The notes below the pieces were generated by a model. That model saw only the letters and a list, made by a program, of their open reading frames with translations, was not told where the DNA came from and did no database searches. Positions 23,398 through 46,689 of a DNA stretch of 64,000 nt are shown one piece after another (position 1 is the first letter of the stretch; every line of letters starts with the position of its first letter). A program made the position numbers and the translations under genes. Origin of the DNA: a virus; the IMG/VR virus record IMGVR_UViG_3300034106_006471, positions 24,925 to 88,924 of that record, one strand, 5' to 3'.

Positions 23398-26300
23398 ATG
23401 AGCGTATCTCACTCTTGTACATTTTACGATAGATTTTTTTTAGAAGACTTACAACCATATTCTATCATTAGTGAAAATTCAGATTATTATATTAAATATG
23501 ATAATCAATTATCTAGAAAACCAATAACTATAAATCTACACAATATCGATCTAGCTCCGGCTCAATTAGATAATAATATTTGGCAACCGATAATAGTAGA
23601 TTTACCAACAGTAGAATCTTCTAGAGCGGTTTCTAGTAAATATATATTTGGTAGAGGTTCTAGCAATTCTCCTAATCTAGGCATAGAAAATGTTTTATTT
23701 TTTGAACCACAATTACAAAATTGGACTATTAATGGTTCCGTTACTATGTCTACAGATTGGATACTAACATCGGTACTCACACCCTTTCTTGCTCAATATG
23801 GTATATTGTGTTGGTCAAAACCTTCTTTTAATTATTCCTCAAATAGTAATTCTTTAGATAAAATTCCTTATAATACTGTTGTATATTCTCAACAATCATG
23901 GTCATATACTATTGATAATCAAACCATATCAATAGGCCCTGGTACTAAATTACTAAAAAAAACAGATAATGTTTTATTGATTCTAGATAATGACAAAGTT
24001 ATTAATAATAGCTCAAATATATTTCCAAATACTCAAAATAAATATTTTATATTGGACGATTTAATTCGATATGGTAATTCTTCTAGCACATTAACTAGAG
24101 ATAGTATTTTATTTTCTTTAGATAATACCACTAATTCATATATCACACATATTTCTATGGGAGAAGCTTATTCCTACTTCGATTCTGAAGGATCAAAAAT
24201 CATAGATTTACAAAATGGGGTTTATTCAAAAACCTATTTATCGCCAGTATTAAATAATATTTATAGAGAAATTTATCATCATTTAACCTTACGCTATCCC
24301 AAAAAAATTAATACTGATACAAAATTACCACAACCTTTATTTACAAGAAAACAAGGAAGAAGGTTTAAAAAGCTATGTTATTTTTTAGCAACTCATCCTC
24401 AAATAGATAGAACAACAGTTTCTATTCTACAACATCCGGGGATATATGATATAGTAAATGAATATATTAATAATTCTGCTGTTAGCATTAGTATATCGGA
24501 TGAGATAAATGAAATAAAAAATACTTTAAGTCAGATTGGAAACTATTTCAAAGATATATTAATTGATGATACTATCTATTATGATAAAACATATTTACCA
24601 AAAAAACTTATAGAAAAATATGGAACAAAATTAAGATTTACCGGAGATGCGTCATTAATATATAATGCGCCATTACCTAATGGACCTCATGTTAAAGTAT
24701 CTTCTGATATTAGATCTTTGGTAGATAAAAATATTACAAATTCAGTAGTATATAATAATACTAAAATAAATGTTGGTCTATTTATTGCTGAAACAATTAT
24801 TACTAATGATAATTCACAACTCAAATTAAGTAGTACGCTTTCAGAAAATAATGATTCTAATATAATTCCTTTATGGGATATTTCTAAAAAAGAATTAATA
24901 AATGCTGAGCTTAAATTTAGTCTTGGTCCTGATATCACTGTGAATTTTAATAATCCTAGACCAGGAGAAGGTTTTGATGTTATAAAAAAAACTTTTACTA
25001 AAAGAATATCAGAAGAACTAACTGATACAATAGAAGAACTAACTATTACATTAAGAAATGCAAAATTTAGTATTGATCCGCAACTATCTGTACTGAGAGA
25101 TACTGATATTTCTTTTGCCTGGTCCGTTTTACAAGGATCCAGGTGTTTAAAATTTAGCGATAGTAGCGCTTTTAATCCAGCAGATGGTTTAGAAGCTGCT
25201 GGAGAGGAAGTTAGGTTTAATACTAGTCAGGACGAATCACCAAATATATACATACAATCTCCGGGCAAATATATAGTTCAGTGTGTTTTAACAACACAAT
25301 ATGGTGTTTTTGCTGATACTCTTATTATATATGTTACTGGCAGCAATTCGGATGTTTCATATAATAAACCAACAACTGAACCTGTTAGATCAATTAGAAA
25401 TATAAATCTGATACCAGAAGATAGAAATGCTACTATGGTAGCAAACATAAAAGAATTTGCTATTGGTAAACAGGGAATTTTTTGGCCAATATATAGCGAT
25501 CTGAATATTTTAACACCAAAAATAGGCAGACTTAGATTAGCTAGAGTACCAACTGTTCAGCCTTTTGGTTTTATGTCAGATAAATATTTAATTCCATTTA
25601 ATCAAGATGATCCAGAATATATCTCGCAGATAGAGACTCAGGATCATTATTTTTCATTTTCTTTTAAATGTAATAATACTATTATTGAGATAGGAAAAAT
25701 TGCTTTAACTAATTTATATAGCGATAATTATCCTAATTGTCAATCCCTTTATAAAGAAGCTATAGACTACGAGGGTGTGGATGTAGAATTAGGACAGACC
25801 AAAGTTATAATAGATCCTATATCTGGAAATCAAGTTGAGATAAGACGAGCACGAAATAACGTAGCTGTTAAAAATCTAAACCTAGACAGTCCTCCAGCAT
25901 CAGGATTGTCTGAAATTATATTAAATAGCTCTGAATCTTTAAATTTTCCAGATTATACATATAATGGAGATATATATTCATTATATGCTGGTGAAGGGTT
26001 GAGCACCTCTTCTGTGCCGGTTGTTTGTTATGAACATATTCCTAATTCTACCAAATTAACTGAACTGAATAATTCTATTACTGTTAATATGAAAAAGGGT
26101 TATTTTCATCCTCATTCTGGTTGGTTGGACCAATCCCTTATTGCTACTAATTCTAATCTTAATAATAGAACATCTATTATGATAGGAGATAGTTCTAAAA
26201 GATATCACAAAACATTTAGAGGTTTAGGATTTAGTGAATTATCTAATGATTTTTCAGACGAAAACGTAAAGATATATAGTAGTAGCATTGTTTTGTCAAT

Positions 26301-39875: not shown

Positions 39876-39916
39876 ACAAATCTCCTTAAGTTCAAATTTA
39901 ATATCCAACCACCGAC

Positions 39917-39946
39917 TTATAATAGTTTGAGGAGGCCAAGAGTCAA
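39917..39946 (-). promoter_or_regulatory. sigma70-like promoter for ssb
   Basis: TTGACT-N16-TATTATAA on the minus strand; the -35 overlaps the stop codon of the dnaE C-fragment. Confidence 0.6.
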
Positions 39947-41067
39947 GATAAGGGAACAAAACACTTTTCCACTATAAAACCATCCTTGGACTTTGCTCTA
40001 CTTCCAGAAAAAACCAGAATATTTTCTTCAAATAAATGATGTTTATATTTTTGATAGGTTTCAGGAAATAATATAACCGAATCTAAACTACCTGTCTGAT
40101 CCTCTACTGTCAAAAAAGCCATCTCTTGACCAGGAGTTTTTCCGGTTTTAGTTTTGATAGCATTAATATAAGTTATTTCGCCAGCAAGTAAGATTTTTTG
40201 ATTAATATTAGAATGTTTAAAATCTCTACATGTACTATTGGTCATACTAATATCATAAGAGTCTAATTTAGAACAAGATATAGCAGTTCCCAGGTACGCC
40301 GCTTCGTTATCTGCTAACCATTCCACCTTATCTATTAAAGAATACGGTGGACTAATATATGTCTGTAAAAGATCTTGTATAATAAGTTTTCTATTTTTAT
40401 TTACTTTTGTATGATTAATTAATAAATTTAAACAATCCTTGAGCGTAGTTTTATTACTAATTAATATTGGTTTTAAATAATCAATTTCTTTGGTGGTTAA
40501 AGAGGATGATATTTCAAAATCAAATAATATTTCTGTTCTATTTTTGCCAAAATAGTCTATAGCTCCGCAACTAATAATTGCTTTAGATGAAGAAGAATTT
40601 ATTTTATGTAAAACCCCAAATAGCATTTGTAAATAATTCATTTTTGAAATACTATTATTAGTGTTTAATTCTAATAATTTATTATAAACACTTACTCCTA
40701 AGCCCTTAATATCTGTTAATCCAAAATATATTTTATTATTTTTGATTTCAAAAAGCTTATTCATTAATCTTAAATCAGGTAAACATATACTAATATCCAT
40801 CTCATTAGCATTTTTTACCAATTGTTTTATTTCTTGCTGAGGATCGACTTTGTCTTTAGCAAATCTAAGATAAGAGCAAAAAAAGGCTTGAGGAAAATGG
40901 GCTTTAGTATATGCAGATAAGTAGGCATTCATAGCATAGCTAACGCCATGAGAGTTAGAGGTGGCTATTCCATTACCAAAGAATAAATGCTGATTAGACT
41001 TAACTTCAATATCTACTGTTGGTTTTATTCCAACTTTCTCGATTTTTGTAATTTTTCTCGCTATCAC
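39943..41067 (-). CDS. dnaE: DNA polymerase III alpha, C-terminal fragment preceded by split-intein C-part
   Basis: GTG start; 38-aa IntC ending ...HLFFGNGIATSN, then extein SHGVSYAMNAYLSAYTKAHFP; IYFGLTDIKGLG (HhH); OB fold EMAFLTVEDQTGSLDSVILFPETY. Confidence 0.92.
   Translation of the reverse strand: MIARKITKIEKVGIKPTVDIEVKSNQHLFFGNGIATSNSHGVSYAMNAYLSAYTKAHFPQAFFCSYLRFAKDKVDPQQEIKQLVKNANEMDISICLPDLRLMNKLFEIKNNKIYFGLTDIKGLGVSVYNKLLELNTNNSISKMNYLQMLFGVLHKINSSSSKAIISCGAIDYFGKNRTEILFDFEISSSLTTKEIDYLKPILISNKTTLKDCLNLLINHTKVNKNRKLIIQDLLQTYISPPYSLIDKVEWLADNEAAYLGTAISCSKLDSYDISMTNSTCRDFKHSNINQKILLAGEITYINAIKTKTGKTPGQEMAFLTVEDQTGSLDSVILFPETYQKYKHHLFEENILVFSGSRAKSKDGFIVEKCFVPLS
40954..41067 (-). 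other. split intein C-fragment (IntC)
   Basis: MIARKITKIEKVGIKPTVDIEVKSNQHLFFGNGIATSN|S: block F (VDIEV..HLFF.NG) and terminal Asn followed by Ser+1. Confidence 0.9.
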
Positions 41068-41960
41068 TGTTTTTTCCTTAAATAATTTTTTCTAGCTTGA
41101 ATTGTTGCTAGGTTTCTGTTTGGAAGCATGGGTACTAGATTTTTTGTTTGTCTTTCATTAATATGTTTCAATATAATAGCATCTTCTTTTTCGGTCCAAA
41201 ACTTATAATCTGAACTGATTTCTAAAAATTTATCATATTTTCTTTGTAGTTTAAAGGTGGCATCTTTATATATAACATCAAACAACTTGATGCAGTCTGT
41301 TTGACAGAACTTAAGTTCATAGTATTTTTTCTTTATTTTTTTAACATTGCCAAATCCTAAATAGTTATGAATATCATCTAAAATCTGTTTGGATACAGAC
41401 ACTATATTGGCATAGTAATAGTCTTTGCCTCTACGATGAAAATTCGTTTTCCATATCGACCCATCTCCATCAAAAAATCCACGAATAAAATGACTTATGT
41501 ATTTCTTGGGCATCTTTGGTAATTTTAGATTAAATGTTTTATTATGATCTATACCTAATTTAATTAATTTTTTGTGTATTTTTTTGGAAAATATACATAT
41601 TTGGCATTTATCTTTTGATACTCTGATTTTAGATTCTGTAGATATTTTATCTCTAATGTACTCTAGCATGGCTATGTCTTTTATGTGTATTCCAATAGTA
41701 ATATATGGTCTTTTTTCCCAAACATGGCCGTCTGATGCGATAAAACCTAGACAATAAGCTAGATCTATGGACCACTTAGTAAAAAATTTATCATTGGCAA
41801 AATATTTTATTTGAGCCCCACTGGATTTTTTAGGAATTCCATACTTTTCTATATAATTAAGAACAGTCGTTCTTCCAATATTTTTTATTTTGGATATTTG
41901 TATAGATCCAAGATTTTGAATAACATATAAATTATATAGTTCATTCTTATCAATTAACAT
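41064..41960 (-). mobile_element. free-standing LAGLIDADG homing endonuclease between the split-intein halves
   Basis: Two motifs LAYCLGFIASDGHV and HFIRGFFDGDGSI; N-terminal HTH-like and C-terminal WTEKED..PNRN..TIQAR (Myb-like) segments; stop overlaps the IntC start (GTGA). Confidence 0.88.
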
Positions 41961-41996
41961 AAATTACACTGTAAATAGTTTAATAAATATCATAAT

Positions 41997-42293
41997 CTAT
42001 GCTATACACATAATTTCTAAATTGTTAAGCAAAATTTCTGATAATGGATGAACTTTATTATCGGAACATAAAAATTTATGCTCCATAGTACAGGTTATAT
42101 GATTTCCATTATCTAATGTTATTTTAAAGACTTCTTGTTTACCATGATCATATTTCTTAATAACTTCAATATATTTATTTTCATATGTATTGTCATTACT
42201 TATTACTGGAGAAAGTATCTTTTCTCCTATGTCTAGATCTTTTATTGTTTTTTCTCCTGATTCAGTCAGCACCACAGTTTCTTCTAGTATCGA
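41997..42293 (-). other. split intein N-fragment (IntN, ~98 aa)
   Basis: K|SILEETVVLTESGEKTIKDLDIGEKILS (block A starting with Ser) ... GKQEVFKITLDNGNHITCTMEHKF (block B TxxH). Confidence 0.9.
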
Positions 42294-42890
42294 CTTATTA
42301 AAACTGTACCTTTGACTTTTTTCGATCCATCCGAATATTTCCTGGGCATCATTATCATTAACAATATTTTGTTTTTTACATCCCTCTAAAAATTTACCTT
42401 TAATTTCCGCCATAAGCTTAACATCTTTTTTTCCAATGCTTTTTCTTAAAGTATCGCTTTCTGATAATGTGAAACCAGCAATATCTTTTGCTATTTGTAT
42501 AGCTTGTTCTTGGTAAATTAATTCGCCAAGAGTTCCACTCAGGATAGGCTCTAAAGATGGATGAAAATAATCTATACTTTCATTATGATTTTTTCTATCT
42601 ATATAGTGATTTGTAACGCTTTTACCGTCTCTAATAGCTTCTAATGATCCTGGCCTTAAAATAGAAATCAAAGCAGACAACTGCTCCATATTTTCTGGTT
42701 TAAGTTTTTTGGCAATACTTTGACCCAAACGACTTTCTAGCTGAAATACTCCCTTAGTATTTCCATCTGAAATTAGATTCCATGTTTTTTTACAATTTAA
42801 ATTAATATTCTCTATTTTAGGAGAAAATATAATTCTATTGTCTTCAACACAAGAAAAAGAACAACCACAATCAAACTGTAATTTAGTCAT
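41997..42890 (-). CDS. dnaE: DNA polymerase III alpha, middle (finger) fragment ending in split-intein N-part
   Basis: GNTKGVFQLES..LKPENMEQLSALISILRPG, TLGELIYQEQ, AGFTLSESDTLRKSIGKK, RYSFNK, then IntN. Confidence 0.92.
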   Translation of the reverse strand: MTKLQFDCGCSFSCVEDNRIIFSPKIENINLNCKKTWNLISDGNTKGVFQLESRLGQSIAKKLKPENMEQLSALISILRPGSLEAIRDGKSVTNHYIDRKNHNESIDYFHPSLEPILSGTLGELIYQEQAIQIAKDIAGFTLSESDTLRKSIGKKDVKLMAEIKGKFLEGCKKQNIVNDNDAQEIFGWIEKSQRYSFNKSILEETVVLTESGEKTIKDLDIGEKILSPVISNDNTYENKYIEVIKKYDHGKQEVFKITLDNGNHITCTMEHKFLCSDNKVHPLSEILLNNLEIMCIA

Positions 42891-43585
42891 TATGAGTTAA
42901 CAAAAGATCCTTTAAATTTAATTTTTTGACTTAAATTTCTGTGCAATCTTAAAAATCTAACAGCTATTTCTGCTGTGTCTTTTACATCTTTTAAAGCATC
43001 ATGAGAACCGTCTTTATTAATGCCTAAATAATCTCTTAAATTATCTAGAGTATAGTTTTTAAGTTCATTGTTTCCCTCAAACCAATAAAAGATAACATTC
43101 ATTATATCTAATATGTCTCTAGGATAGAATAATGATGATGACCCTTCTTTATTTAAGTTGCCATATTTTTTACTTAACCTATTGACTATCTTCATATCAA
43201 AGCGATTAATATTATATCCAGATGCTATTGGAGCACTAAAAAAACTCTTTTTGGTATTTCTGGTATGATACATATCTAAGTAGGATACAAATCTTTCCCA
43301 CCCATTTTTTTGATCTGGATAATTTTTCCAAGAAGAAAGAATATCTTCTTTAGAACATCCTCTAACTTTTGAATGAAAATCTAAAACATCACTGTCCCCA
43401 TAAGCATAGCTTTCATTATCTATTAATTTTTCTGGTTTTAAATTAATATTAAATTCTGAATCTGGTATAACTTCTAATTTTAGAGGGTCTACCATAATAG
43501 CAGCAATTTGAACGGGACTGCATGATTCTGGATCGGACCCGTCTGTTTCCATATCAAAAACACAAATTTTTTGTAGATTAGGCAT
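42890..43585 (-). CDS. DEDDh 3'-5' exonuclease (DnaQ/epsilon-like)
   Basis: VFDMETDG (ExoI), SGYNINRFD (ExoII), HDALKD (ExoIII). Confidence 0.88.
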   Translation of the reverse strand: MPNLQKICVFDMETDGSDPESCSPVQIAAIMVDPLKLEVIPDSEFNINLKPEKLIDNESYAYGDSDVLDFHSKVRGCSKEDILSSWKNYPDQKNGWERFVSYLDMYHTRNTKKSFFSAPIASGYNINRFDMKIVNRLSKKYGNLNKEGSSSLFYPRDILDIMNVIFYWFEGNNELKNYTLDNLRDYLGINKDGSHDALKDVKDTAEIAVRFLRLHRNLSQKIKFKGSFVNS

Positions 43586-43757
43586 TTATTCCTACTTCCG
43601 ATGATGGTTGAACGTAAATGGTATTATTACTATCATTAGCCGAGCAGGCATTTACTGTTTTGCAACAACTTACTCTAACGTCGTTGATTTTAATAAACTC
43701 TTGACCATTCAATGTGAATCTATCTCCTACCGCTAGTTCTGAAAATACTTTATTCAT
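43578..43757 (-). CDS. small hypothetical protein (59 aa, not in ORF track)
   Basis: MNKVFSELAVGDRFTLNGQEFIKINDVRVSCCKTVNACSANDSNNTIYVQPSSEVGINA; ATGA overlap with the dnaE-N stop, GGAG SD upstream, fills the gap exactly. Confidence 0.7.
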   Translation of the reverse strand: MNKVFSELAVGDRFTLNGQEFIKINDVRVSCCKTVNACSANDSNNTIYVQPSSEVGINA

Positions 43758-45634
43758 AATTCTACTCCTTGATTATATAGTATATCTGAAATATGCATAG
43801 CTTTATCTAGAAATGCTAATCCTAGTATATCAAATTTAATAACTCCCAAAGCTTCTAAGTCATTCATTTCCATGCCTGCGATCATTTGTTGATTTTTATT
43901 ATCATATATCATAGGACAAATATCTTCTAGATTATCTCTAGATATTACTACACCAGCAGCATGTTTTGATTGATTAGACTTGGTGCCTTCTAATCTTATA
44001 GCTTGTTCGAATCTTTTTGCAAGCGGACCTTCTAGTGTCTCATCTTCTTTTAAAGAACACCACTCTTTTAGCTTATCTGAACTATTTTCTAGAGCCCATC
44101 TAATAATACTAGATTCGCCTGTTTCTTCTTTCATTTCTTGAAGCTCGTCTGCAATTTTAGCTTCGTCAGGTATATTTTTGGTTATTTTATTCATCTCTTC
44201 AAAACTAATATTGCCATACACTCTTAAAACTTCTTTTAAAGCCCCTCTTCCTTTCATTGTATTAAAAGTTAACATTTGTGCTACTTTTTTAGTTCCATAT
44301 TTATTTTTGATATAATCAATAACATAATCTCTTTTATTAATAGGAACGTCTATATCTATATCTGGTAGAGATACTCTGTCTTTGGAGGATCTACCAATAT
44401 TGTAAAATCTTTCAAAAATTAGATGATAAGGAATAGGATTTACTCCAGTTATTCCTATAAGATATGAAACTAAACAACCGGCCGCACTTCCTCGACCAAC
44501 TCCAGCCAACCAATTATTTTTCTTTACATAATCAACAATATCCTGAACTATTAAAAAATAACTACTTAAACCAGCACCCTGAAGAACTTCTAGTTCATGT
44601 TTTATTCTATCTACATAAATATTTTCATCTTCTTTAGATACTTTATTTTGAATTTTATCTCTCCAGCCATTTCTACATAATTGTCTTAGATATTGATCAG
44701 GATCATATCCTTCCGGACAATCAAAAGTTGGAAGAACTGGTCTGCTAGTAATATCATAATTTTCGCATAAGCTATCTACAAAATTGGTATTTTCTAATTC
44801 TTCTTCTGTATGAATATCTAGCATTTCTTGAAAAGAAGGAATATGATACTTATCTGATTTAAAAAAGCATCCCATGGGTGCTGATTCGTCATTTAATATT
44901 TTTCTATTAACTTCTGGTAATGTTAATTTTAAATTATTACATATTAATACTCTTTGATCAACAGCATCTTCGCTTTCACAATAATGAGCATCTGGGGTTG
45001 CTATTAATTTTGTTTGTGTTTTTTGACCTATAGTTCTAATTAAGTTTGTTAAAGCAATTTGATCAGCATTGTGTTCTTGGTCTATTAATTGAGATTCTAA
45101 AAAGAAATTATCATTTCCAAACATACCTTTCATTTTACTAACAAATTCGCAGCCTAAATGAATAGGACTATCAGCTTTATGTAGTAGATTAGACAGTGAT
45201 GAACCTAAATGGCCACAGAAACCAATAATATTACCATCTAAAAGAGTTGATAAAGTATCAAAATCCAATCTTGGCTTATGATAGAACCTATCAGGATTAT
45301 TGCTAGCAGATATTATTTTTATTAAAGTTTTCCATCCATTATAGTTTTTAGCAAGTAGTAAAAAATGAGACAGTTGACTATTTTCTTTAGTTTTTAGTGT
45401 TGAGTTTTGATCACATACATATATTTCACAGCCTAATATTGGTTTAATTCCTGCTTTTTTCATATGAGAATAAAATTGCACAGCACCGCTAATAGAGCCG
45501 TGATCAGTTAGAGCACAAGAAGTTGCTCCTATTTTTGCACATCTAGCAGCTATTTGTGCTGGCTTACTTAAGCCATCTAGCAACGAGAAGTGGGAGTGTA
45601 CATGTAGGGGCGTGTATTTGCCTCCTGTTGTCAT
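43754..45634 (-). CDS. dnaE: DNA polymerase III alpha, N-terminal fragment (PHP + palm/thumb)
   Basis: LHVHSHFSLLDG, ALTDHG, KPILGCE, DAHY (PHP); GVGRGSAAGCLVSYLIGIT, PDIDID, SKHAAGVVI, KFDILGL. Stops about 20 aa after KFD. Confidence 0.95.
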   Translation of the reverse strand: MTTGGKYTPLHVHSHFSLLDGLSKPAQIAARCAKIGATSCALTDHGSISGAVQFYSHMKKAGIKPILGCEIYVCDQNSTLKTKENSQLSHFLLLAKNYNGWKTLIKIISASNNPDRFYHKPRLDFDTLSTLLDGNIIGFCGHLGSSLSNLLHKADSPIHLGCEFVSKMKGMFGNDNFFLESQLIDQEHNADQIALTNLIRTIGQKTQTKLIATPDAHYCESEDAVDQRVLICNNLKLTLPEVNRKILNDESAPMGCFFKSDKYHIPSFQEMLDIHTEEELENTNFVDSLCENYDITSRPVLPTFDCPEGYDPDQYLRQLCRNGWRDKIQNKVSKEDENIYVDRIKHELEVLQGAGLSSYFLIVQDIVDYVKKNNWLAGVGRGSAAGCLVSYLIGITGVNPIPYHLIFERFYNIGRSSKDRVSLPDIDIDVPINKRDYVIDYIKNKYGTKKVAQMLTFNTMKGRGALKEVLRVYGNISFEEMNKITKNIPDEAKIADELQEMKEETGESSIIRWALENSSDKLKEWCSLKEDETLEGPLAKRFEQAIRLEGTKSNQSKHAAGVVISRDNLEDICPMIYDNKNQQMIAGMEMNDLEALGVIKFDILGLAFLDKAMHISDILYNQGVEL

Positions 45635-45645
45635 TTTTTAAACCT

Positions 45646-46689
45646 TTAGTGTGTTGAGCCAGGTGATTTATAAAACCCGACAGAGTGATTTGGTGCGCTA
45701 TAGTTTTGTACCACATGATCCATACCATGCAACTCTATTTCGTGACGAATTTGTTCACATTTTGTCATATGTTTACCAAATGGAGTAATTTGATTATCTC
45801 TATATTCAATAATTGGGTCTATATTTGTATTTTCAAAAGTAGTTTTACCAAAATGACACAATTTGGTACACATCCAACATTTATTTAGTTTAGGCTTTTT
45901 AACATTTTTTATAAGCTCAAATTTTTGTCGTAACATATCCTCCGTGCTTGCTAAATCTTTTTTATCAAAACAAATAGAAAATGGGCCACCGTCATTTACA
46001 AAATATATAGAAAAAATAATATGTTCTATTTCAGGATATAATTTACTAATAGCATAATGATAAATTTTTAATTGAGGATCTTTTTCTAATTTTTCTATTG
46101 TTTTTTCTTCTCCAGTAGCCCAGTCCAATCTTCTTCCAGTTTTCCAGTCTATGATTTCAATAGTTTTATTATTTGCCAGTGTGATTAAGTCTATTGTTCC
46201 TTTTAAGGCCAAATTACCAGATATTTCTCCAGACGGAGTTTTGAAGTTGTATTGGGCCCACTTCTTATCTATTGTAAAATCAAAATGCTGCTCAGGAGAA
46301 ATTATTTGTCTGTTTCTCGGATCAAACATACCATTATTAAATTCTATAGCTTTATAGACCCAACTATGACAATCTTTGTAGTCTTTATTAGTCCAATTAT
46401 GGTGACTATTAGCTGTTGAGTAGTAGTCGTATACTTTTTTAATAATAGAATCTAAACTATATGATGAACAACTAATTTTACCTACTACATCATCTTGGAT
46501 AAAATCTATATTGTCCTGTTGAGCTTTTTTGATTACTGCAAGTATTTCTAAAATTTTATGAACAGTTGTCCCTTTGTCTGCTTTAAGGCCGCTTGGACCT
46601 CTCCAGCCTAAAACATACTCGATAAAATATTGCTGTTCACAAAGAGAATGAGTATTGTACGAAGAGCTTCTGAAATATGTAGTAATTAT
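45646..46689 (-). CDS. Cas4/AddB-like PD-(D/E)XK exonuclease, probable ATA start
   Basis: Frame is open 120 codons upstream of the tracked Met (46329), giving IITTYFRSSSYNTHSLCEQQYFIEYVLG..ADKGTTVHKILE; LKGTIDLI, EIIDWKTG, QLKIYHYA; C-terminal CWMCTKLCHF. Confidence 0.8.
   Translation of the reverse strand: MITTYFRSSSYNTHSLCEQQYFIEYVLGWRGPSGLKADKGTTVHKILEILAVIKKAQQDNIDFIQDDVVGKISCSSYSLDSIIKKVYDYYSTANSHHNWTNKDYKDCHSWVYKAIEFNNGMFDPRNRQIISPEQHFDFTIDKKWAQYNFKTPSGEISGNLALKGTIDLITLANNKTIEIIDWKTGRRLDWATGEEKTIEKLEKDPQLKIYHYAISKLYPEIEHIIFSIYFVNDGGPFSICFDKKDLASTEDMLRQKFELIKNVKKPKLNKCWMCTKLCHFGKTTFENTNIDPIIEYRDNQITPFGKHMTKCEQIRHEIELHGMDHVVQNYSAPNHSVGFYKSPGSTH

Follow-up and report, generated by a model that had tools for sequence, protein, structure and literature searches.

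A split intein with serine at both junctions, flanking a LAGLIDADG endonuclease gene, in the DnaE gene of an uncultured lake-water phage: a putative mobile cassette

Structure of the interrupted DnaE gene

The gene for DnaE, the DNA polymerase III alpha subunit, is interrupted in an uncultured lake-water phage by a naturally split intein that has serine at both splice junctions and encloses a free-standing LAGLIDADG homing endonuclease gene. The phage is represented by IMG/VR record IMGVR_UViG_3300034106_006471 (88.9 kb, about 30% G+C, estimated to be about 62% complete). The stretch analysed, hereafter the window, comprises 64,000 nucleotides (nt), positions 24,925 to 88,924 of that record, and was present in lake-water metagenome runs from 18 studies. 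DnaE is spread over three open reading frames (ORFs) on the minus strand, 43754-45634, 41997-42890 and 39943-41067. The second of these closes with the N-terminal intein half (IntN) and the third opens with the C-terminal half (IntC). The split intein is genuine and under selection, and is not an assembly error. Very probably, the replicative polymerase gene here carries a mobile cassette of the fractured-gene kind, with intein halves that would splice in trans and an endonuclease that would promote homing. The parts of the cassette and its flanks are as follows (window coordinates; lengths in amino acids, aa).

42294-42890, minus strand: N-extein, the DnaE fingers segment, 199 aa, C-terminal ...RYSFNK (DNA_pol3_finger, E 2.6e-44)
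42000-42293, minus strand: IntN, 98 aa, closing the 297-aa ORF 41997-42890 (Ser1, His50 in KYDHG, C68-T69-M-E-H72, C76, C96)
41961-41996, minus strand: spacer of 36 nt from the IntN stop to the endonuclease ATG, containing a second in-frame stop, TAA
41064-41960, minus strand: free-standing LAGLIDADG homing endonuclease gene, 298 aa (LAGLIDADG_3, phrog_4645 and 2dch matches)
40954-41067, minus strand: IntC, 38 aa, opening the 374-aa ORF 39943-41067 (block F ...DIEV...H..., block G NGIATSN)
39943-40953, minus strand: C-extein, 336 aa plus stop, with HhH and OB domains, beginning with Ser+1 as SHGVSYA... (HHH_6, E 1.7e-8; tRNA_anti-codon OB, E 3.8e-5)

IntN starts with the Ser codon TCG (42291-42293), immediately after ...RYSFNK, and stops at TAG (41997-41999). 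IntC starts at GTG (41065-41067), with an AAGGA Shine-Dalgarno sequence 7 nt upstream, and is closed by the Asn codon AAC (40954-40956), from which the host sequence continues as SHGVSYA. The host sequence RYSFNK-SH is regained once both halves are removed, and RYSFNKSHAVSYA runs uninterrupted in the single 537-aa ORF of the viral contig L012. The exteins (199 and 336 aa) together match that ORF in length. The splice register is fixed because relatives with Cys at position 1 read FNK/C... (the slash marks the junction). A register moved by one residue was rejected, as the terminal Asn and the +1 nucleophile would be lost.

The catalytic set of class 1 inteins is complete, with Ser1, T69-x-x-H72 (T69-M-E-H72), the terminal Asn38 of IntC and Ser+1. 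Ser at both 1 and +1 makes the junctions those of the cysteine-less type of Aes123 PolB1. IntN matched the N half of the Pfam Intein_splicing profile (E 1e-07; E 1.5e-9 in a repeat scan, profile positions 1-90 of 155), with a score under the cut-off, as half a domain would be expected to give. Among solved structures, the top matches were Npu DnaE intein chains for IntN (E 1.8e-9) and gp41-1 for IntC (E 6.5e-4).

An earlier note on this stretch, made from the letters alone, had placed a naturally split intein with Ser1 and Ser+1 at the FNK/SH site of DnaE. Its coordinates, the lengths of both halves and the residues were re-derived exactly, and separate ORFs, independent assemblies and a second viral contig (L014, below) agree with the placement. 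The L012 ORF bears out its claim that RYSFNK-SHGVSYA is reconstituted on removal. Its likening, by eye, of IntN to Npu DnaE-N and of IntC to gp41-1-C is upheld by the structure matches, and the intein-profile search it proposed found the N half of the profile. The three non-junction Cys it had counted in IntN are C68, C76 and C96. The gene between the halves was absent from that note.

The endonuclease gene and the spacer

The 298-aa ORF between the halves matched Pfam LAGLIDADG_3 (36.9 bits against a cut-off of 22.5, E 4.5e-9) and the PHROG family phrog_4645, endonuclease (E 4.5e-37). The solved homing endonuclease 2dch aligned to residues 69-201 (E 4.1e-5), covering both LAGLIDADG motifs, ...FIASDG... 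and ...FFDGDG.... The acidic residues of the motifs, D77 and D166, are invariant between the window and L014. With a free-standing LAGLIDADG gene between its intein halves, the locus is a fractured gene in the sense of Dassa 2009 (PMC2677866).

A profile search for the endonuclease across viral contigs detected one distant relative (31% identity), in L024 (2626-4919), where it splits an unrelated gene. That host gene is DUF2201 metallopeptidase/VWA-like and is cut into ORFs of 392 and 62 aa, with no intein.

Authenticity and selection

In the window the endonuclease ORF lies in the frame of IntN. This would fit a contiguous, full-length intein with an in-frame LAGLIDADG domain, masked by a sequence error, read-through or recoding. 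However, two distinct stops, TAG and TAA, divide the endonuclease ORF from IntN. The endonuclease TGA overlaps the IntC GTG (GTGA), so that IntC is in a different frame, and IntC has its own Shine-Dalgarno sequence and start (GTG in the window, ATG at the equivalent codon of L014). The frame relation is not kept in L014 either. Its spacer differs in length by a 1-nt indel, and the shared frame in the window is therefore an accident. Contigs from four other runs, belonging to four studies, aligned over 40800-42400 with zero indels and were identical at the stops. The gene junctions were covered with 0 differences by X4 record 11 (41817-42086), X5 record 21 (41894-42044) and X3 record 1 (40800-41570), and the frameshift or stop error that the earlier note had thought worth checking for was thus not found. 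Both a contiguous intein expressed by read-through and an assembly error were rejected on the stops, the frame change and the independent contigs, and we regard a masked contiguous intein as hardly credible.

The same three ORFs are found in L014, in which IntN stops and IntC starts at equivalent codons, although its exteins are only 67% and 53% identical to those of the window. The layout occurs in three diverged viral contigs in all (L014/L026, L038 and L032). The ratio of nonsynonymous to synonymous substitution rates (dN/dS), computed for L014 only, was 0.23 for IntN, 0.16 for IntC and 0.10 for the endonuclease, values of purifying selection; dS was close to saturation in the exteins.

The intein family at the DnaE site

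A HMMER search with IntN alone against 1.84 billion cluster representatives recovered 674 proteins at E <= 1e-3, the best 150 of which were analysed. Among the 149 that could be aligned, 113 have it inserted in DnaE at Y-x-F-N-x/ (Cys1 in 88, Ser1 in 24 and Thr1 in one, the Ser1 count being taken from the alignment to the hidden Markov model). The family tree omits the 36 aligned proteins without this site motif. Proteins ending within 15 residues of the IntN alignment were called split-like; actual stop codons were seen only in L014 and in the viral-contig loci described below. Most family members terminate at the IntN end, and the Ser1 set comprises 16 split-like proteins, 7 with an internal intein and 1 unclear case. 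Internal (cis) members are mini-inteins of 125-148 aa in 30 of 31 cases; the C-terminal junction of the remaining one, P0120, is ambiguous (138 or 210 aa).

In P0002 (697 aa), the nearest relative by IntN, two inteins lie within a short part of DnaE. One is full-length, sits inside the fingers and has a LAGLIDADG domain in frame; the other is a terminal Ser1 IntN.

A further search took residues 1-60 of the C piece as query and found 34 clusters. In 32 of them, the window's own included, the proteins are 241-384 aa long (all but one 363-384 aa) and open with an IntC of 35-38 aa ending in TSN/SH, so that the Asn and Ser+1 are present in 32/32. These IntC-first proteins came from ENA, JGI and Logan and from one NCBI record, and the sole names given were "DNA polymerase III alpha". 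The cis members end in SN/SH in 29 of 31 cases. Given these two counts, a penultimate Ser is the family norm.

Two claims of the earlier note are modified by these searches. The penultimate Ser it had pointed out in place of His is present, but it is no peculiarity of this intein. Its statement that Ser1 split inteins are rare holds for those in print and fails in metagenomes, where the protein terminates with IntN in 16 of the 24 cluster representatives that have Ser1. Its description of the intein as independent is correct as to the insertion site.

H72 is retained in all 24 Ser1 and all 88 Cys1 members (112/112). Of the extra cysteines, C68, which directly precedes the block B Thr, is retained in 24/24 Ser1 and 79/88 Cys1 members (103/112 overall), C76 in 16/24 and 78/88, and C96 in 9/10 and 41/46 of the non-gap rows. 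In inteins of the Aes123 PolB1 type, by comparison, non-catalytic Cys are absent or not conserved. With all three extra Cys conserved family-wide, replacing them by Ala may have an effect, and a version entirely free of cysteine may come at a cost.

A His at position 50, which stands in a K-Y-D-H-G context in IntN, is present in 24 of 25 Ser/Thr1 members versus 5 of 88 Cys1 members. On the free tree, co-variation of Ser1 and His50 needs 13 changes, of which well-supported branches force just one. A constrained tree grouping all 26 Ser/Thr1 rows was better than the free tree by 18 log-likelihood units (approximately unbiased test, p 0.63). The idea of repeated co-variation was toned down for this reason. 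As a single Ser/Thr1 origin is likely, the association may be a marker of the clade and not replicated evidence, and the Ser1 members probably form one clade, marked by His50. On a wider reading, these compact and gp41-1-like split inteins would be a clade of their own in nature that uses oxygen nucleophiles throughout, enabled by an active-site His50 that is NX-like but stands in a D-H-G context and not after Arg or Lys. We put this forward only tentatively and think it somewhat doubtful. Literature searches on what residue 50 might do in DnaE inteins turned up nothing relevant.

Scanning viral contigs by pattern for relatives of IntC yielded 38 loci, 21 of them at this DnaE site. Fourteen of the 21 are split, with a gap of 0.87-0.96 kb that holds one same-strand ORF of 295-318 aa. 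The others comprise one split locus with a 155-nt gap and no gene, five contiguous inteins and one locus truncated by the contig end. The intervening ORF is Vsr/DUF559-like in L027, L028, L030, L033, L035, L041 and L042, and likewise in L043-L045, which were counted as copies of L042 (identical strings). It is of the LAGLIDADG type in L026 (on the same contig as L014), L032 and L038, and has only a weak NUMOD3 match in L029. With the window there are four LAGLIDADG cassettes, all Ser1, with endonuclease identities of 45-79%. Two unrelated endonuclease families thus occupy the equivalent loop of one intein family.

The geneless split member, L034 (4346-4501, 155 nt between IntN and IntC), may once have contained an endonuclease gene and lost it. 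A natural pair of split and cis forms was also seen: a Cys1 intein beginning FNA/CLDPNT... is split around a Vsr-like gene in L030 and L035 and contiguous in L031.

Distribution and mobility

The insertion site is empty in L012, the closest relative of the window (89% identical over the match). Among 20 distinct viral contigs fetched with the extein pieces, 18 were empty (FNK/SH or FNL/SH), one (L005) carried a contiguous 125-aa intein and one (L014) the split cassette. A contig of a related phage from a lake run (X4 record 13; 4 differences in 41 nt, 42295-42335) goes from FNK straight to SHAISYAMN and is intein-free, so intein-free target alleles co-occur with the cassette in such a habitat. 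Nucleotide identity between the window and L014, which is more distant than L012, is 77-84% in the cassette and 50-80% in the exteins. The aligned stretch around the spacer, from the IntN end to the endonuclease start, reaches 90% mean column identity, above the flanking coding DNA (77-84%). This distribution is the pattern of a mobile element, to which stronger constraint on the cassette could contribute.

No family members were found in GenBank phage records or in the PDB. Megablast of 39900-45700 against GenBank phages returned zero matches, and tblastn with IntN and 10 extein residues returned only matches of at most 36% identity, in 14 records with features annotated in terminase genes. 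Within the GenBank phage records, no cultured phage carries this intein.

The absence of the cassette from L012, the nearest relative, together with the incompleteness of the contig, would also be compatible with a recent deleterious invasion, in which the endonuclease has just broken a cis intein and left the polymerase gene dead or dying. Against this, the four diverged LAGLIDADG cassettes have all three ORFs open, and dN/dS is 0.10-0.23. The 32 IntC-first DnaE clusters are spread over ENA, JGI, Logan and NCBI, and the stretch recurs in the lake-water runs of the 18 studies. We consider a recent invasion of this kind very unlikely.

Origin and fold

The contiguous Ser1 intein P0171, 130 aa long, shares 72% and 70% identity with the window's halves and carries a five-residue loop, TAPQQ, precisely at the position of the window's cassette. 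None of the contiguous relatives at this site shows an in-frame endonuclease domain. These two observations favour step II of the Dassa model, according to which the endonuclease gene was free-standing when it invaded a mini-intein. The repeat formed by M-C-I-A at the IntN end and M-I-A at the IntC start was considered as a target-site duplication and dropped, since in P0171 both flank one loop.

The fold was modelled for a cis homologue only, the contiguous intein of L005 (51-57% identical). With 8 flanking residues on each side and 29 family members aligned, the model had a predicted local distance difference test score (pLDDT) of 90. Its best PDB match was gp41-1 (6riz; template modelling scores 0.80/0.89, root-mean-square deviation 1.4 Å, 32% identity), and the Aes123 PolB1 intein came only at rank 48 (E 4.8e-5). 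The model points to a HINT fold closest to that of gp41-1.

Net charges of the N and C parts of two split and two contiguous members are as follows.

Window (split): N part -7, C part +3
L014 (split): N part -9, C part +5
L005 (contiguous): N part +3, C part -4
P0171 (contiguous): N part -9, C part 0

In the family as a whole, acidity is higher in split IntN than in the N parts of cis members (mean -6.15, n=79, vs -2.65, n=26; Mann-Whitney p 0.0019, uncorrected for relatedness), a possible sign of adaptation to the split state.

Predicted splicing and homing

The following course of events is proposed. An ancestral compact mini-intein with a gp41-1-like fold would have resided at FNK/SH in the DnaE fingers. 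A free-standing LAGLIDADG gene would have invaded it at the canonical endonuclease-insertion loop, leaving IntN to close one DnaE ORF and IntC to open the next. The acidic IntN (-7) and the basic IntC (+3) would pair and fold into one HINT domain. Splicing in trans would then take the class 1 pathway, both nucleophiles being oxygens. Ser1 would undergo an N-O acyl shift, transesterification to Ser+1 would follow, Asn38 would cyclise, and an O-N shift would complete the reaction. The product would be a 535-aa chain with fingers, HhH and OB domains, equivalent to the 537-aa ORF of intein-free relatives. The endonuclease, translated from its own start codon, would cut the intein-free dnaE of co-infecting relatives, and repair would copy the whole cassette.

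Several observations weigh against parts of this scheme. Ser37 occupies the penultimate position of IntC, where block G of class 1 inteins has His, although this is so family-wide. A penultimate His is common in inteins but not obligatory. In Pasch et al. 2023 the NX motif reported for Ser1 inteins is defined as a His that follows Arg or Lys and lies upstream of block B; in that form it is not present in IntN, which contains no [KR]-H. The structure model of the endonuclease, from a 2-row alignment, had a pLDDT of 40.6 and was unusable. Around the cassette, a promoter scan gave 28 promoter-like sites against 37 expected from shuffles and a terminator scan nothing above shuffles. The region upstream of the endonuclease ORF folded no better than shuffles (z-score 0.07), and neither the hairpin nor the T4-late-promoter-like element of the Dassa type is seen there. 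No RNA dataset was listed among those containing the stretch. The higher identity of the cassette than of the exteins could partly reflect constraint instead of transfer. In favour of the scheme, and of a need for this gene, PolA and PolB were not found in the 88.9-kb record, but with only about 62% of the genome covered another polymerase is possible elsewhere.

The missing penultimate His and canonical NX motif are also what could be expected if the halves only docked, holding the DnaE pieces together non-covalently with no splicing; moreover, in this lineage a DnaE broken between palm and fingers, with no intein at the break, is already tolerated. A mere docking module would, however, have no need of catalytic residues, and the class 1 residues are conserved family-wide (Ser/Cys1, T/S69 and H72 in 112/112, Asn and Ser+1 in 32/32). 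The penultimate Ser is common to the cis members, which must splice for the polymerase to be produced. Docking alone is therefore judged unlikely, and we infer that this split intein splices.

Neighbouring genes and the second break in DnaE

Upstream of the cassette, the remaining part of DnaE and two nested genes were found.

43754-45634, minus strand: DnaE piece 1, PHP and palm (DNA_pol3_alpha), 626 aa (PF02811, E 2.5e-34; PF07733, E 1.1e-73)
43578-43757, minus strand: conserved small ORF, 59 aa, within the intein-free palm/fingers break (phrog_2183, E 1.6e-6)
42890-43585, minus strand: DnaQ-like 3'-5' exonuclease gene, 231 aa, nested between DnaE pieces 1 and 2 (RNase_T, E 4e-12; phrog_192, "DNA polymerase exonuclease subunit", E 6.6e-20)

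This second break of DnaE (42890-45634), between palm and fingers, has no intein, and the C-terminus of piece 1 is without any intein motif. The layout, with the 59-aa phrog_2183 ORF and the DnaQ-like exonuclease nested in the break, is the same in L012, L005 and L014; homologues of the 59-aa ORF occupy the equivalent place in L012 and L014. In L014 (824-3218) the palm piece is itself cut by another split intein, with Cys1 at the site ...GRG/SAAGC, an IntC ending in ...VHN, a gap of 112 nt and no endonuclease gene. The DnaE of L014 is thus made from four ORFs.

Significance

For phage biology, the window presents a replicative polymerase encoded by three genes and broken by two means, one break being intein-free and the other carrying a split intein. 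The family displays every stage of the Dassa gene-breaking model together at one site. The co-existing alleles (empty, cis mini-intein, split without endonuclease, split with LAGLIDADG and split with Vsr-like endonuclease) allow a direct test of how split inteins originate.

Cysteine-independent split inteins are called very rare in the literature, where the named ones are all from PolB (PMC10189870, PMC12707363), and according to a 2025 abstract just one cysteine-less split intein of high efficiency is on record. To protein engineers wanting such inteins, this family offers a different, DnaE-hosted lineage of small inteins with a gp41-1-like fold and many natural Ser1/Ser+1 split members. A caution concerns the three "spare" cysteines, which are conserved and may be of importance. 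If the Ser1 members do form a clade enabled by His50, they would add to the PolB-derived inteins a second source of split inteins that are fast and redox-independent, differ from them in structure and are orthogonal to them, and nature would have supplied an independent test of the NX-histidine idea. The main value of the locus lies in a lead for cysteine-independent protein ligation and in a natural series on how split inteins arise.

Comparison with known systems

The split DnaE inteins of cyanobacteria (Npu, Ssp) share the host protein and an acidic IntN with the window intein. Npu chains are the best PDB sequence matches of IntN (E 1.8e-9 to 1e-5), and an Npu-derived chain also has a penultimate Ser (...NGFIAS). 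Their site, however, lies four residues upstream, before CFNKSH, as in the family-search hit P0124 (...FAEY/C...). As described in PMC2677866, they use Cys1/Cys+1 where the window has Ser1/Ser+1, and their halves are encoded at distant loci without an endonuclease, whereas those of the window are 0.9 kb apart. Site, nucleophiles and genomic layout all differ, and judged by these the window intein is not a cyanobacterial DnaE intein.

gp41-1 (PDB 6qaz, 6riz) is similarly compact (about 125-136 aa), is split at the same position and has Ser+1. It also has a Cys directly ahead of the block B Ser/Thr (ICSEEH). It differs in its host gene, a helicase, in its penultimate His (...THN) and in having Cys1, going by the C1A mutant in the title of 6riz.

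The cysteine-less split inteins named in PMC10189870 and PMC12707363 are Neq Pol, Aes123 PolB1/CL/CLm, PolB16 OarG, CP21, LCGC14 and GOM-OPS-1. In common with the window intein, they have oxygen nucleophiles at both junctions, a natural split at the endonuclease-insertion site and a few non-catalytic Cys in IntN. In the accounts given there, all are hosted by PolB, are larger (IntN of 115-120 aa in three new ones) and possess the [KR]-H NX motif; the extra Cys of the window intein, unlike theirs, are family-conserved. The window intein is not related to them.

Actinobacteriophage DnaE inteins, such as that of Rhodococcus phage Grayson gp103, occupy the same FNK/SH site of phage DnaE (Gosselin, Arsenault & Gogarten 2025, 10.1101/2025.01.02.630785). 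They are contiguous, with Cys1 and a penultimate His (...THN/SH), and belong to a different intein lineage; antisense LAGLIDADG and Vsr-like cases are listed in the same paper. The DnaE fingers are described as a hot spot of intein sites in Novikova 2016 (PMC4760082). Our literature search found no same-strand free-standing LAGLIDADG gene between split-intein halves and no Ser1/Ser+1 split intein in DnaE, the scope of both being papers other than the supplementary site lists, of which those of Dassa (Table S1/Figure S1) and Novikova may hold the site.

The closest counterparts are the fractured genes reported from marine metagenomes in Dassa 2009 (PMC2677866), where three DnaE loci are listed and the endonucleases named are GIY-YIG and Vsr-like. 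The endonuclease of the window is of the LAGLIDADG type, a word that occurs 0 times in the main text of that paper, and the active-site list there has Cys1 instead of Ser1. The 5' hairpin and late-promoter signal of those loci were also not detected in the window. New here is the probable Ser1 clade together with the LAGLIDADG endonuclease; the layout has been known since 2009, and the family is large and uncharacterised. In layout the window agrees with the fractured genes as that paper describes them: a phage-like gene of DNA metabolism is broken into adjacent same-strand ORFs bearing intein halves, with a free-standing homing endonuclease between them. Most split relatives at this site carry the Vsr-like endonuclease family of that paper, and the origin proposed there, a mini-intein invaded by an endonuclease gene that stood alone, fits the data presented here.

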